Notes under the pieces: generated by a model | Told to the model about the DNA's origin: nothing | Databases searched by the model: none | The model's input: the letters and a program-made list of their open reading frames with translations, nothing else | Shown: positions 4,261 through 11,029 of the stretch, piece after piece | Layout of the letters: every line of letters starts with the position of its first letter | Position numbering within the stretch: position 1 is the stretch's first letter | Made by a program: the position numbers and the translations under genes | Source of the DNA: Chiloscyllium plagiosum | Lineage: Eukaryota | Direction: 5' to 3' | Length of the DNA: 51,970 bases | Assembly: GCF_004010195.1 (NCBI RefSeq) | Contig: NC_057719.1 | Span: 7,048,230 to 7,100,199 of the forward strand

Positions 4261-6001
4261 TTCTCTAAACATTCATTACATATTCTGTTTGTGCCAGTGA
4301 CTCAGTTCATTTACAAAGCTTAATAGTGAATGTAAGTTATTAAGGCAAAACATTAACAACTACACAGCAAAGCGTTATATCATTTGCGTATGTGCAACTT
4401 CCAGCAAGGGTGATTGAGTCCTAATTTAAGAAGAAAATATTGTCTGGTTTTTCTCCTATCAAGCCAATCACAATGCTGCTCCTACTGAAATTGATTAATG
4501 CAGTTCAAGCCAATGAACTGATCTTCTGATCTTCCTCACATTTGAAAGTCTTGATGCTTTGGCAGCTTTGCAAACTGATCTCCTGATAGTGCAACTGTGT
4601 GATTAAAGATACAGCTGTTGTCCTCCAAGATACTTGGTTTGTTTAGCTCTTTGAGCAAGATAAAGCATTCTGAGGAATAAATTTTAAGGCAAGAGGAACG
4701 TAGTTTGTTATAATTTCATAACTTTTTTTTATACATGAAGAAATTGGGCAGCCATGCCCAGCAATCTGGTACAGGGCTCTGAATTACAGAGAAACAGGTT
4801 TAAATCACAGCCTTGGCTGTCATTTGAACTTGCCTGCCTGGCTTCTGCATTGTCAGACTTATACTAGTGCTACCCTTAGAGGGTAGGAAGCATCACCTTG
4901 CCTTGTAGAAAAAACACCTTTTGCCAAATGATAGTTCTAGCTCTTGCCAATTTGCATGGGTTTGATCTTGTGGCTGTTTGTATCTGAGATTTAGTAAAGA
5001 TCAGCTGCAAGGTCACTTTACAACAGAAGTATTCATCGGCTCTTGAATCTAGATTCATTTTGTTTTTCTAATTGTGTATGAGGAGGACATATTGCTCCGA
5101 GCTTTGATTAGTTATAGAATCTCAACGTTTCAGCACAGAAACAAACAAATAACAATGCTGTGTTGGTTGTTCAGCTATGTTGGGGCCCTATGCACAAGTA
5201 TATTAAGTGCATGGGTTGCATCTTTAAGTTCAGCAGCAATAAGATCATTGGTCCCCTCTCTGTAATTGGAGCCTTTATGTCTGTCAGAAATACTTACACG
5301 AAACACTTTTTTTTGTGCTCCTAATTTACGTAGCTCTTATCATTGTTTTGTGAAAATCAGTGGGTTCTTAAAAGAATGAAAATCATGTTTCATGCAATTT
5401 AATCGCTGCAAAAGGCTATTGTTAGACTGGTTTTGCAGTATGTCATTTTATTACCTTTGCTCCGATTTCTTCTGTTGCTGACAGTAAAGTTCTCTTGCAA
5501 GTTACAAACTCAAACATACAACACGTTTTTTCATGAAAGCAAAGTTGAAGTTTGGATCTAATATTCCCCTGACCCCCCCCCCCCCCCCCAAAAAAAAACC
5601 CACAAAACACTAAGAAACTTTAGAGCTATTTGGAAAGTGTGGCAACAAACTGTATAGTAAAAATGTTCACTCGTTAATGATGCCAGCTATGCTGCCTTTC
5701 AAAAGGTAAACCAGGAATGAGATTGCTGAGACATGCACAAGAAGGCTGTTTTCAGTGGAAATGTGAAAATAATTATTCCAACTTCATTTTATGTATTATT
5801 TTGTATTTGCAAGAGCAGAGGATGTCTGTGTTGCTGTTTTTCTGTCTGCTTCAAATGCAATGAAAAGCCTGACATTCACTGCTTTTCACAAGTAAATAAA
5901 TATTGGCTGTTGAAGCAAATTGACTGGAATAGATATACCAATGTAAGTTTCTTCATCTATAAAGTACAACTACGTTGATTTGATTTCACTAGTCTGCACA
6001 A

Positions 6002-6408
6002 ATAGAGTCATAGAGATGTATAGCACAGAAACAGACCCTTCTGTCCAACTCGTCCATGCTGACCAGATATCCCAACCCAATCTAGTCCCACCTGTCAGCA
6101 CCTGACCCATATCCCTCCAAACCCTTCCTATTTATATACCCATCCAGATGCCTTTCAAATTTGTAATTGTACCAGCCTCCACCACTTCCTGTGGCAACTT
6201 ATTACATACAAGTACTACCCTCTGTGGAAAATGTTGCCCCTTAGGTGTCTCTCATATCTTTCCCCCTCACCCTAAACCTATGCCCTCTAGTTCTGGACTC
6301 CCCCATCCCAGGGAAAAGACTGTGTCTATTTACCCTATACAGCACTTCACCTTTATCTAAATTAAACTCCATCTGCTACTCCTCAGCCCATTGGCCCATC
6401 TGATCAAA
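6002..6408 (-). mobile_element. CR1 3' fragment, internally deleted
   Basis: Reverse complement of 25760-26090 (tagagtcatagagatgta... tail), fused to an upstream RT piece (QMGQWAEE.QMEFNLDK). Confidence 0.9.
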
Positions 6409-6571
6409 CCTGGAGTTAGTTGACATTAAATGCTCCCAGTTTCACAAAACATATTTATCTTTGTTATATGGCACTTGCCAAGATTTAACTTGAAGGAGAG
6501 AGAGGTTTCTCTTAGGTGTATTAAATTATGAAGGTTGCAGGATGTGACCAATATTTTCTTTCTTTCAACAG

Positions 6572-6708
6572 AGTATTGGGAAAGGCTCCTTATGGTGTAT
6601 AGACCCAGAGTACAGACAAAACCTCATTCAGGCTTTGAAAAAGACACCCTACCATCCTTATTCTCATGTTTTTAACACGCCTCCCACTTCCCCACGAGGA
6701 TATCAAAG
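6572..6708 (+). CDS. FOXN3: Internal coding exon of forkhead box N3 (end of the forkhead domain plus downstream region)
   Basis: Acceptor ttttctttctttcaacAG|, donor AAG|gtaagc, 137 nt (phase 0 in, phase 2 out). Translates [45 protein letters not shown]. This matches vertebrate FOXN3 as I recall it ([45 protein letters not shown]) and not FOXN2 ([24 protein letters not shown]). Confidence 0.96.
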
Positions 6709-7042
6709 GTAAGCATCTGTGTGCTGTTGCATTTATTCAGACGTCATTTATCTGCATTAATGACGATGAATTGGGCATGCATTGCTTGAGGAGTGGAACA
6801 GGAGGGCTGGAGACCGAAAATGTTTGTTTAAGCCTACGTCATTGTGTAAGTAAGAAATCAGAGGTTAAAGCTTCCCTGTAGTGATTTTGAGTTTCGGTCA
6901 GCAGCTATGTGGAGCTCTGAGGGGAATTGTACTGTCTTGTTGCAGAGTTAAATCACATTCCAGCACATGCCTAGACCATCAATTGTCAAAAGAGAGATTG
7001 GGAGGAACAGCTGAGCTGAGAAGGAAACTGCCATGCATCTGC

Positions 7043-7199
7043 TTCGCTAGGTGATTAGCATGATGGTAGCCATGGAAGCCGGAACGTTGCCATGGCAGCA
7101 CATAGCTGAGACAGGTGCAGTTGCATCACGAGTTCTATTTTGTTGCCTGGCAAATGGACAGGCTGTTAGCATGTGGAATTACACAGTTGCCTTGACAAC
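7043..7199. promoter_or_regulatory. Cluster of RFX X-box motifs; candidate intronic enhancer or alternative promoter
   Basis: GTAGCCATGGAAGC (7066-7079), GTTGCCATGGCAGC (7086-7099), GTTGCCTGGCAAA (7142-7154) and GTTGCCTTGACAAC (7186-7199), plus a weaker TTCGCTAGGTGAT (7043-7055). Compared with the X-box palindrome GTTGCCATGGCAAC. Lies in non-repeat sequence. Confidence 0.7.
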
Positions 7200-8754
7200 A
7201 CTTTCTCCAAAGTGGCTCCAGTTGGCTTCCAGCCAATTTTTTTTGTTGCAAGTGTGTGTGTTTTATACCTGCTTTTTTACCCCCCCGTCTTAAATATCCA
7301 CAGGAGCGTACTTCATCTGAGATGACAACTCGAGGTCAGCTAGCTCTAGGAGATTAAAACAAAATGGGACTCAGTGAAGCGACAGAGTAATCTCGGGGAG
7401 GAAAAAAAAGCTTGTAAAGCCAGAGTGCCTGTGATGTATGTGTAGTCAAACCCTAACCATCGAATACAAAAGGTCCTTGTGGTATATTGCATTTGACATT
7501 GCAGGTTTTTATGCTTCTCTGAAGCAGTGGAAGCATTAACCTTAACAATTTTTTTCTGCAAGCAAATGTGCCTTTTGCCCCTTTCTCAAAATCTTAAGCC
7601 TTTGGAATTTTGGGAGCTTAAATGCAGTCGAAATAATTTTTTTAGCATTAACCTGTCTTCCATAATTAATGAGCCAAAGTGGGGAGGAGAGAGATATGCC
7701 ATAAAGGACTCTGATCACTTCTTTTGGGTGTCAATTTGCAGCAAATTGGCCTATAAGCACACATTTGAGTATCCTATCTTTTGCATGTATTTGATTGAAA
7801 AAGTGTGAACAGTGAATCTGTGCCTCTGTAGCCTGCTTAAGAGTGATATTACTAAAGCAGCTGGCAACCCTTTTTAACTGTTCTGGCTAGTTTTATTTAT
7901 TTCCATCCTGATTTTAGTCTCTCAAAATGGTGCAGACCACTTGAAGTCAGCTGAAGTTTGATATCTTTAATGACTTGTTTGCAGTATTGTAGACAGGAAC
8001 AAGTAAACATTAGATGTTTAGGGAAATTTTTTCCAAGACTTATTCTGGGAAAGAAGACATGTTTGGAAGCAATGTCAGCCCCTATATTTAACTATTGTAC
8101 TGCTGTAAATTGGTTCAGCCCTATAGAACCACTGTTCTCTGGTCACTGTATGCATTTGCATCAATGCTCATTACTTAAGATGGTTTATTTCGGTGATAGA
8201 ACTCTAAATTGAGCAGCGACTGCTCAGCATTCATAGTTGTTGCGATTATAGAAGCGCACAGCACAGAGACCATTCAATCCATCATGCTTTTGCTGGCTCC
8301 TTTGAAGGTTTTCTGTAACCAGACGACGTTGTTTTCATGCTGCACATGTTCCTTTTATTCCATGGACTCGCACTTTGTGGTCAAGCCACCATCACACTTT
8401 ACTAAACACCTTTCGGAAGTCTGAGTACACATTCTAAACTTGTGGTGTCGTGGTCACTATCTCTGAGTCAGATGCCAAGTTCAAGTCCCACCATGCTTCA
8501 GAGGTGTATAATAACATATCTGGACAATTTAATTAGAAAATATCTACATTAATTTCATGACCCTACTGAGCTTCTTTGATTCCATGTATATCAGCATATT
8601 GATTCGAAGATCACCTTAGCTTTCGGGTGCCTGCACCCCAGTAATGGGGAAGGAAGATTAGAATCCTTCACACAATAAGTAACGTCCTAACATTTTAACT
8701 CTTGAGACCATCTAAAGAGTTTTAACTCTCTGCAGTCAAGTGAGGTTGAAGTGC

Positions 8755-9130
8755 TTAAGATTATATTCACTGGAGATTCAGAAGAATAAAGGAGGATTTA
8801 ATAGAAATCTATAAAATTCCAACCATACAAGATTAGGTAGATATTGGAAGGATGTTCCCCATGCCAGGGGAGCCCAGAACCAGAGATCAGTCTAATGAAA
8901 CTGGATAGACTATTTAAGACTGAGATGAAGAGAAATTTCTTCTCTGCCACAGAAAGGCCAAAACATTTATATTTTCAAGAAGTTGGATATACTTTTAGGA
9001 CTAAAGGTACCAAAAGGTATGGGAGTAGACAGGAACAGATTACTGAGTTAGATGATCAGCCATGATTATACTGAGTGGCAGAGCTGGTTCAAAGAGCCAA
9101 ATGACCTTCTCCTCTTCATTTCTATGTTTC
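8755..9130 (+). mobile_element. Degraded CR1 3' end
   Basis: FKTEMKRNFFS motif; ttctatgtttctta tail. Confidence 0.75.
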
Positions 9131-10059
9131 TTAAACTTCTTTGACTAAGTTTTGACTTCCCAATTATTTTGCAACTTGATGTGTTAATTTGTTATATGAT
9201 TTTTGTTTACATTCTCTTTCCTTAAGAAGAAACAATATAATAAGCTTCCCCCTTTATAAGAATGTCAGTTTAGTATCCATATTGTGACATCCTTAAATAC
9301 TGAGCAGGGAAATGAAGTGTCCCCAGCAGCGAGAACTTGTGGTCATGACTGCATTTGGGGTCATCTATCATCTTGCACTTATTGAACACATGACTACATT
9401 GTTCACTTAGATTGGTTGAGTGCTGCCAACTGTCTTCAAAGGACAGCAAAGCCCCTTGTGGTTGGTAAGTGACGAGGTGCTGACTTTTAAAGTTAAAACT
9501 TTTAAATTTTAGTTTTACAATTACCTGGCTTGCATGAACATTATTGTTGTTTCCAGAATGGCGGGTGTAATTTTTCCATTGGCTTTTTAAGTCTTTGAAT
9601 AGGCTAAATGTGTTGTAGGAATAGAAGTTGGTTTAATTAGGCCCAAAATGAAAAGGTTAAGTTTATATGTAACCAACACGAGGCTTTACTTAACTGTTAC
9701 TTTCGAATTGGGGCTTTCACATGTACATATTACAGATAATTGTTACACCTTCCTGAACTTTCTGTAGTCAAACATTCTACTGCATTGCATTTATTGAATA
9801 ATGAAAATTCTGAAGGGATTTGATGACAAATGTCTAATTTCGTAAAGAGTACAAGTTAATTCAATCTCAACTTCTACCTGCAGCAACTCAGGCAAAGATT
9901 TTCTATTTCTGCTTTTGCCATGCCATGATATTCTCCCATTGCTTTATTGGTAAAAGATGGATTGGCAATTGTTGAAGATAAAATCAACTTCCAGAGTTGG
10001 ATCTCCCTGCTGATTGCATGGCCACTTTGGTACTTCTGGATTATCTCCACAGTAATGAG

Positions 10060-10625
10060 GATGAGGTCTACCACAAAACCCCACCAACATACTTATAACA
10101 ACAGCTAATGAACTTGAAGGACCTTATACAGACAATGAGCAAAACTAGTGTCATTTACAAAATACCTTGCAAGAACAGTGGACAAACACTATATTGGACA
10201 AACAGGCAGAAACCTAGCCACCAGAATACATGAACATCAACTAGCCACAAAAAGACATGACCCACTCTCACTAGTATCTTTACATACAGATGAGAAAGAA
10301 CATCACTTCAACTGGGACAACACACCCATCCTAGGACAAGCCAAACACAGAGACATGAGATTTCCTTGAAGCATGGCATTCCAACCGGAACTCTATCAAC
10401 AAGCACATTGACTGGGATCCCATTTACTACCCTCTGAGCAAAGAAAAACAGGAAATGATGTCACCACAGGAAATACCATCACCAACCCAAGGAAACCTAA
10501 ACACAAATAAAAAGCAGGCCATACCAGCAGTGTTTCACTGGAGGCTCACTGATAATGTTACCTACTACGGTGACAAACATCTGAAAACAAACCTTCCAGC
10601 TCAGTGAGCAAACTTACATCCACAA
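10060..10625 (+). mobile_element. Penelope-like element 3' part (GIY-YIG endonuclease remnant plus terminal region)
   Basis: Across frameshifts: VIYKIPC...HYIGQTGRNLATRIHEH...HHFNWDNT.ILGQ...FLEAWHS..NSINKHI. Followed by a decayed hammerhead core at 10549-10581. Confidence 0.88.
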
Positions 10626-11029
10626 TGTACTTTCTCCAAGATCAAGGAATCATGGAGATAATCCTCCATTCTTGAGAATGGTGCAGACAGTACTCTGGCC
10701 TTTAAAACTTTTAATTTTTCACTATTAACGTGTTTGTCAAAGCTTGTTCTGGTTCTGATTTTTTTTTTTCTGTGGTCCTTGTTTGGGACGAGATGAGGAT
10801 TTGTTGTTCTTGATCTCTGTCAGAATCTTTGCAGGACTAGTCCATTCACAGATGATTTCTTTACCAATTGTTTTAAGTGTCTCAAAAGACATGAAAATTC
10901 AATATTAATTAACATCTTTGTGTGATAGTCAGTCAGATTATTGTAAAATTGTGCTGCCATTAATGACTGAACTGTAGCTTTGCATATCAATGTGAAGTTG
11001 GCTATGATCTTTCAAAACTTAAACGTCGA

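Follow-up and report, generated by a model that had tools for sequence, protein, structure and literature searches.

The FOXN3 exon and the intron downstream of it

The stretch of DNA analyzed here (the window, 51,970 bases) is LINE-rich cartilaginous-fish DNA, as judged from the best matches of the FOXN3 exon that it contains. This exon is the second FOXN3 coding exon and equals exon 3 of the mouse gene. It spans positions 6572–6708 on the plus strand (137 nt), has a normal acceptor and a normal GT donor and carries what we take to be the end of the forkhead domain. The encoded peptide, corresponding to residues 185–229, is 100% identical over 45–46 amino acids to the FOXN3 proteins of Pristiophorus and Chiloscyllium. 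Protein identity and tblastn thus confirm the original prediction that a FOXN3 exon lies just upstream of a cluster of X-boxes, the presumed RFX binding sites. No further FOXN3 exon was found with tblastn in the window, and a metagenome scan with the exon passed only one of 183 stretches (58% over 26 amino acids), which is not FOXN3, and gave no vertebrate locus. Omission of the exon causes a frameshift; skipping of exon 3 of mouse Foxn3 has likewise been reported as frame-shifting.

Reading through the FOXN3 donor (6709–6712) adds an R and then leads at once to a stop codon. Three database proteins of other vertebrates (P0005, P0010, and P0049) stop at the same donor position, and the 227-aa FOXN3 form ending there has 12 member sequences. 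These may represent FOXN3 forms which keep the forkhead domain and lose the C-terminus through intron retention or intronic polyadenylation, or alternatively assembly artefacts. In the shark intron an ATTAAA is found at 7353, and AATAAA is absent before 8300. The intron also has a donor-like word GTAAGT at 6846–6851, 137 nt beyond the true donor, and an acceptor-like pyrimidine-AG word ending at 6881 (6871–6881); both may be cryptic splice sites, with no reads supporting them.

X-boxes and other motifs downstream of the exon

X-boxes were searched with the pattern GTTRCY-N0-3-RGYAAC allowing at most one mismatch, a general consensus and not one taken from a matrix library. The 52-kb window holds five such sites, and three of these, at 7086, 7142, and 7186, lie 378–491 bp past the FOXN3 exon, each with inverted half-sites GTTRCY and RGYAAC and a short spacer. 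The site at 7086–7099 agrees with the palindrome in 13 of 14 positions and is the best-scoring one of the window. The site at 7142–7154 is 13 bp long with a 1-nt spacer and has one mismatch, and the site at 7186–7199 has one mismatch to the degenerate consensus (12 of 14 to the palindrome). A fourth X-box-like site on the plus strand at 7066–7079 is weak, having three mismatches. With an ad hoc matrix made from this consensus the three strong sites rank first to third in the window and the site at 7066 ranks 17th. All four motifs quoted in the original prediction are present where it had placed them. Its count of four to five X-boxes is reduced to three strong sites and one weak site; the fifth candidate at 7043 was rejected, having at least four mismatches. 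The sites at 7086 and 7186 do start 100 bp apart as had been pointed out, and there is no evidence that this exact spacing has a meaning.

The total number of X-boxes in the window is at the level expected by chance (5 observed versus 4.4–5.0 expected) and it is the clustering alone which is unusual. Three X-boxes within 120 bp did not occur in any of 1000 simulated windows for each background (Markov orders 1, 3, and 5). The cluster also did not recur in 5000 local shuffles of 7043–7199 or in 5000 of 6928–7235, and only two of 1500 shuffles of 6709–8240 had at least three X-boxes anywhere. The scan against shuffled backgrounds that had been proposed therefore places the cluster beyond chance, with probabilities that are somewhat optimistic because the sites were already known when the search pattern was chosen. 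It could be argued that the motifs accumulated by chance or in a restricted lineage and have no function, or that they stem from a decayed short duplication of a single motif. The genome offers tens of thousands of such windows, and a 20-bp tandem likeness (70%) between 7057–7076 and 7077–7096 could explain the pair at 7066 and 7086. The sites at 7142 and 7186, however, share no flanking repeat with 7086, the simulations never produced the cluster, and mouse Foxn3 is a known partner and target of RFX. We therefore regard this explanation as unlikely, also in view of the divergence data presented below.

The two E-boxes predicted to accompany the X-boxes are present in a word scan, CAGCTG at 7008–7013 and CAGGTG at 7112–7117 (plus strand), although these words are common, with 19 places each in the window. 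An RYAAAYA forkhead match on the minus strand at 6821–6827, upstream of the block, is weak, as this word is found 106 times in the window. Inside the X-box block the FKH motif is absent, and the FHL-type forkhead motif (GACGC) is absent from 6709–8400. TGACG words are located at 6742–6746, 6761, and 6837–6841. The CRE half-site-like word ACGTCATT occurs twice, at 6740–6748 and 6835–6843, 95 bp apart; in the second copy the CpG is changed in both related species described below, so that this word is not conserved.

We also looked for signs of transcription and promoter activity. The region 7001–7250 contains 4 CpG at 49% GC and is thus not a CpG island (which not all promoters require), and a GC box was not found in it. 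Among the listed sequencing runs that contain the element there is no RNA run. A poly-A single-cell run (X22, about 2% of it read) gave zero reads in 6715–8244, which is uninformative on expression or start sites. In run X20, whose identification as RNA is a guess, a 243-nt contig at 7038–7280 has a depth of 9.2, compared to 4.0–5.8 in four other listed unique contigs.

As stated in the original prediction, a transcript starting at the element would lack the forkhead domain, since the exon upstream presumably carries the domain end. An RFX-driven internal promoter, active for example specifically in testis, would yield such a FOXN3 transcript, also without the RFX-binding motif. The promoters of ciliary genes typically carry X-boxes, and the deeper X20 contig could be read in the same direction, a point to which we give little weight. 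The X20 coverage, however, is patchy along the intron, as would result from pre-mRNA or DNA, and neither a CpG island nor a GC box is present. In addition none of the 22 homologues viewed starts after the exon, a count in which the exon query could not reveal such forms. Altogether an internal promoter appears very improbable to us.

Copy number and divergence in related species

The element was found in 20 of the 24 listed runs, which come from the shark species itself (A) and from two relatives (B and C). Both relatives are only about 3% diverged, and the comparison thus covers a shallow divergence. The word share of the element is 0.60 for B in six of nine rows and 0.43 for C in all four rows. 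The comparison of contigs drew on four of the 24 listed runs, with X13 representing B and X16 representing C.

The region had been described as free of transposable elements. In line with this, a self-BLAST within the window gave no match between 6408 and 8777, and the contig depth over 6715–8244 is 13.5–15.7 in B and 13.2–17.1 in C, i.e., that of single-copy DNA, compared to thousands up to 4x10^5 for nearby repeats in the relatives. One of these, a very high-copy repeat at 10081–10692 (depth up to 4x10^5 in the relatives), was missed by the self-BLAST within the window and also occurs in poly-A reads. The longest plus-strand reading frame over the element (80 aa, 7051–7290) had no candidate in a word-indexed protein search. 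Its sole full HMMER match, to a bacterial-type repeat protein, is spurious, being the sum of ten weak repeats (best 27.7 bits). The X-box element is single-copy, non-coding, and not a transposon, as one would expect of an enhancer.

In relative B one contig extends across 6715–8940 with 68 substitutions, of which at least 39 are listed in 6715–8307, the listing covering 40 of the 385 rows of the substitution table. A block of 308 bp (6928–7235) is without any listed substitution and holds all X-boxes as well as both E-boxes named above. Based on the listed substitutions, the chance of a gap of this length anywhere in B is 0.0065, and within 7043–7199 none of 157 positions is changed, compared to 38 of the 1373 positions beyond it (Fisher p=0.027). 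Two checks suggest that few further substitutions are hidden beyond those listed. The word share predicted from the listed changes is 0.63 (0.58 with one more change) against the observed 0.60, and the unlisted remainder implies 4.6% divergence in 8308–8940, where C shows 4.8%. The word share of B alone is not significant (P=0.10).

In relative C 12 of the 39 substitutions could be placed. Of 65 words sampled, 28 are present in C, with a mean of 24–27 expected at a uniform rate. This result would be improbable (P about 0.01) if all of 6928–7235 were intact and is neutral as to whether 7043–7199 is intact. The 308-bp block is therefore probably not fully intact in C. Also in C divergence is lower over the first 1.5 kb of the intron than over the 0.8 kb that follow (39/1467 versus 37/766, p=0.009). 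To sum up, local constraint on the X-box block is seen in B, and there is no clear excess conservation in C. With regard to an accumulation of motifs by chance, the result in C would be in favor and the lack of any listed change in B against.

The constraint itself could have a different cause. The element might act via other factors (bHLH or CREB-like proteins) or control the splicing of the exon, the X-boxes being incidental or secondary. The unchanged block in B begins 138 bp ahead of the first X-box-like site, and the whole of 6715–7235 is less diverged in B than 7236–8244 (5/521 versus 33/1009, p=0.005, listed substitutions). Constraint close to splice donors is common, and the TGACG words mentioned above are located in this part. 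Other factors, however, leave three top-ranked X-boxes within 114 bp unexplained. A role in splicing or as RNA would have to do without an unusual fold, as the predicted folding of 6928–7235 is not unusual (z=+0.43, 68 of 100 shuffles folding equally well), and without an Rfam match, none having been obtained in 5500–9500 at E values up to 1. We therefore consider a constrained element of this other kind rather unlikely, though slightly less so than an accumulation of motifs by chance.

A second block of low divergence is found further downstream at 7710–8014. With boundaries drawn post hoc and based on the listed substitutions, 3 of its 305 positions are changed in B compared to 30 among the remaining 704 positions of 7236–8244. 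CAGCTG occurs in it at 7858 and again at 7948, together with an RFX half-site (7863–7868, +1155 from the exon) and a perfect FKH word GTAAACA at 8003. The motifs of this second block are thus located at about +1.15 kb, approximately 720 bp from the X-box block at +0.4 kb.

RFX binding at mouse Foxn3 and the proposed function of the element

We take the TSS of mouse Foxn3 to lie 4.84–4.88 kb before exon 2, a distance obtained from two assumed coordinates of neighboring TSSs; their spacing agrees within 38 bp with the derived 962,830 bp. Mouse exon 2 spans 99,388,360–99,388,917 (PMC8355340, circRNA table; mm9 equivalent in PMC5153657) and the cuts of the exon-3 knockout are at mm10 chr12:99,341,099 and 99,341,851 (PMC11443006). 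An ependymal ChIP-seq study (PMC7498320 Table S8; Lemeille et al. 2020) lists at least seven RFX places for Foxn3, from +1.6 to +173 kb relative to the TSS. They include RFX1_544/RFX3_402 (+52.8 kb) and RFX1_1992/RFX2_939/RFX3_1877 (+53.7 kb). The two peaks are 889 bp apart, and the one at +52.8 kb bears the lowest number among the seven places listed; the numbers may be ranks by strength.

With the assumed TSS anchor these peaks compute to 114–760 and 1008–1671 bp past the donor of the same mouse exon. The shark distance of 378–491 bp is compatible with the first range if the TSS and exon 2 are 4.0–5.0 kb apart, which includes the distance we assume. With an assumed gene end, the chance that one of these seven is located downstream of the exon at a distance of no more than 1 kb is about 3%. 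An 83-nt portion of the mouse flank, which stops short of the peak center, contains no strong X-box and, as judged by eye, does not match the shark sequence clearly in a colinear manner. The cut of the IMPC exon-3 deletion at chr12:99,341,099 (PMC11443006) lies about 100–160 bp from the center of the first RFX peak as computed with the assumed anchor, and the deletion allele may clip the element under this peak.

A preprint (bioRxiv 10.1101/2024.10.28.620684; Zhang, Nair, Meng, Turner) describes two intronic enhancers of mouse Foxn3 which are bound by Foxn3, Rfx3, and Foxn4. Foxn4, Ascl1, and Rfx3 activate them and Foxn3 represses, and a negative feedback of Foxn3 is proposed. In enhancer 2 one Rfx motif is accompanied by two E-boxes as well as by FKH and FHL-N, and mutation of its Rfx site abolishes repression by Foxn3. 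At certain co-bound sites an RFX motif is present and a Foxn3 motif is not. Autoregulation of Foxn3 is also reported in PMC12304973, and in both sources Foxn3 RNA is increased in knockouts. The LXXLXWL motif is needed for binding to Rfx3. This motif is present as LTNLNWL in the FOXN3 proteins of other sharks (P0002 and P0003).

We consider it likely that the shark element is an RFX-bound intronic enhancer serving self-repression of FOXN3. The clustering of the motifs, the single-copy status, the constraint in one of two relatives, and the mouse precedents suggest an enhancer. Of the two roles originally put forward, the intronic enhancer is thereby favored, and the alternative promoter is without positive support, a CpG island being absent and the RNA run uninformative. 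By analogy with mouse, RFX dimers of the RFX1/2/3 type would occupy up to three X-boxes 378–491 bp past the exon. They would recruit the activating forkhead proteins FOXN4 or FOXJ1, assisted by bHLH proteins on the E-boxes, and thus raise transcription of FOXN3. RFX would also recruit FOXN3 itself via LXXLXWL, which would dampen transcription of FOXN3 in a negative feedback. As the X-box block is without a forkhead motif, FOXN3 would be recruited mainly by tethering. That the element is bound, that it acts as an enhancer, on which gene and in which tissue, and that it corresponds to the mouse elements are all deductions.

Much more tentatively, and with some doubt, we propose that a pair of RFX modules has been kept just downstream of the second FOXN3 coding exon since the jawed-vertebrate ancestor, the blocks at +0.4 and +1.15 kb being orthologues of the two mouse peaks. 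The second block may correspond to the mouse RFX peak at +53.7 kb, a lead given by words which are common. Perhaps the two blocks are also orthologues of the two published mouse enhancers. An old RFX–FOXN feedback had been suggested as a possibility; the circuit is supported but not new, because it has already been published for mouse, and its antiquity is suggested by position and not by alignment. In the literature searched we found no description of the shark element; most subscription papers and the supplements of the preprint were outside this search.

FOXN3 is a repressor of hundreds of ciliary genes and acts via RFX. If the shark element indeed sits where the mouse has its RFX peaks, the feedback would date back to early jawed vertebrates. 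If the paired modules are orthologous, an RFX-tethered self-repression loop which caps ciliary gene expression would be more than 400 million years old. A triple X-box free of forkhead motifs would be a natural case of FOXN3 being recruited by RFX alone, and a compact substrate for the question whether RFX can tether FOXN3 without FOXN3's own DNA site. If the TSS anchor holds, the cut of the exon-3 knockout near the first peak could affect how the rise in Foxn3 RNA is read. The finding extends the published circuit and overturns nothing.

Like the mouse RFX peaks listed in the table, the shark blocks form a pair a short way downstream of this exon, and their distances from the donor are compatible, the two members being 889 bp apart in mouse and about 720 bp in the shark. 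Since the mouse peaks are known by their position relative to the TSS only, with an assumed anchor, the likeness is one of position. Like mouse enhancers 1 and 2, the shark element is intronic in FOXN3, combines an RFX motif with E-boxes, and would be suited to activation by FOXN4, Ascl1, and Rfx3 and to self-repression by FOXN3. The X-box block, with three X-boxes and neither forkhead motif, differs in make-up from enhancer 2, where FKH and FHL-N motifs and two E-boxes go with a single Rfx site. Despite this mismatch the shark element probably works like the mouse enhancers. The second shark block (7840–8010) is nearer to enhancer 2, having a single RFX half-site, CAGCTG twice, one FKH word, and no FHL motif. 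With the X-box regulon of RFX1-3 and DAF-19 the shark sites share the palindromic consensus of 13–14 bp. A typical site of this regulon, however, is single and promoter-proximal, whereas in the shark three sites lie deep in an intron of a repressor of ciliary genes.
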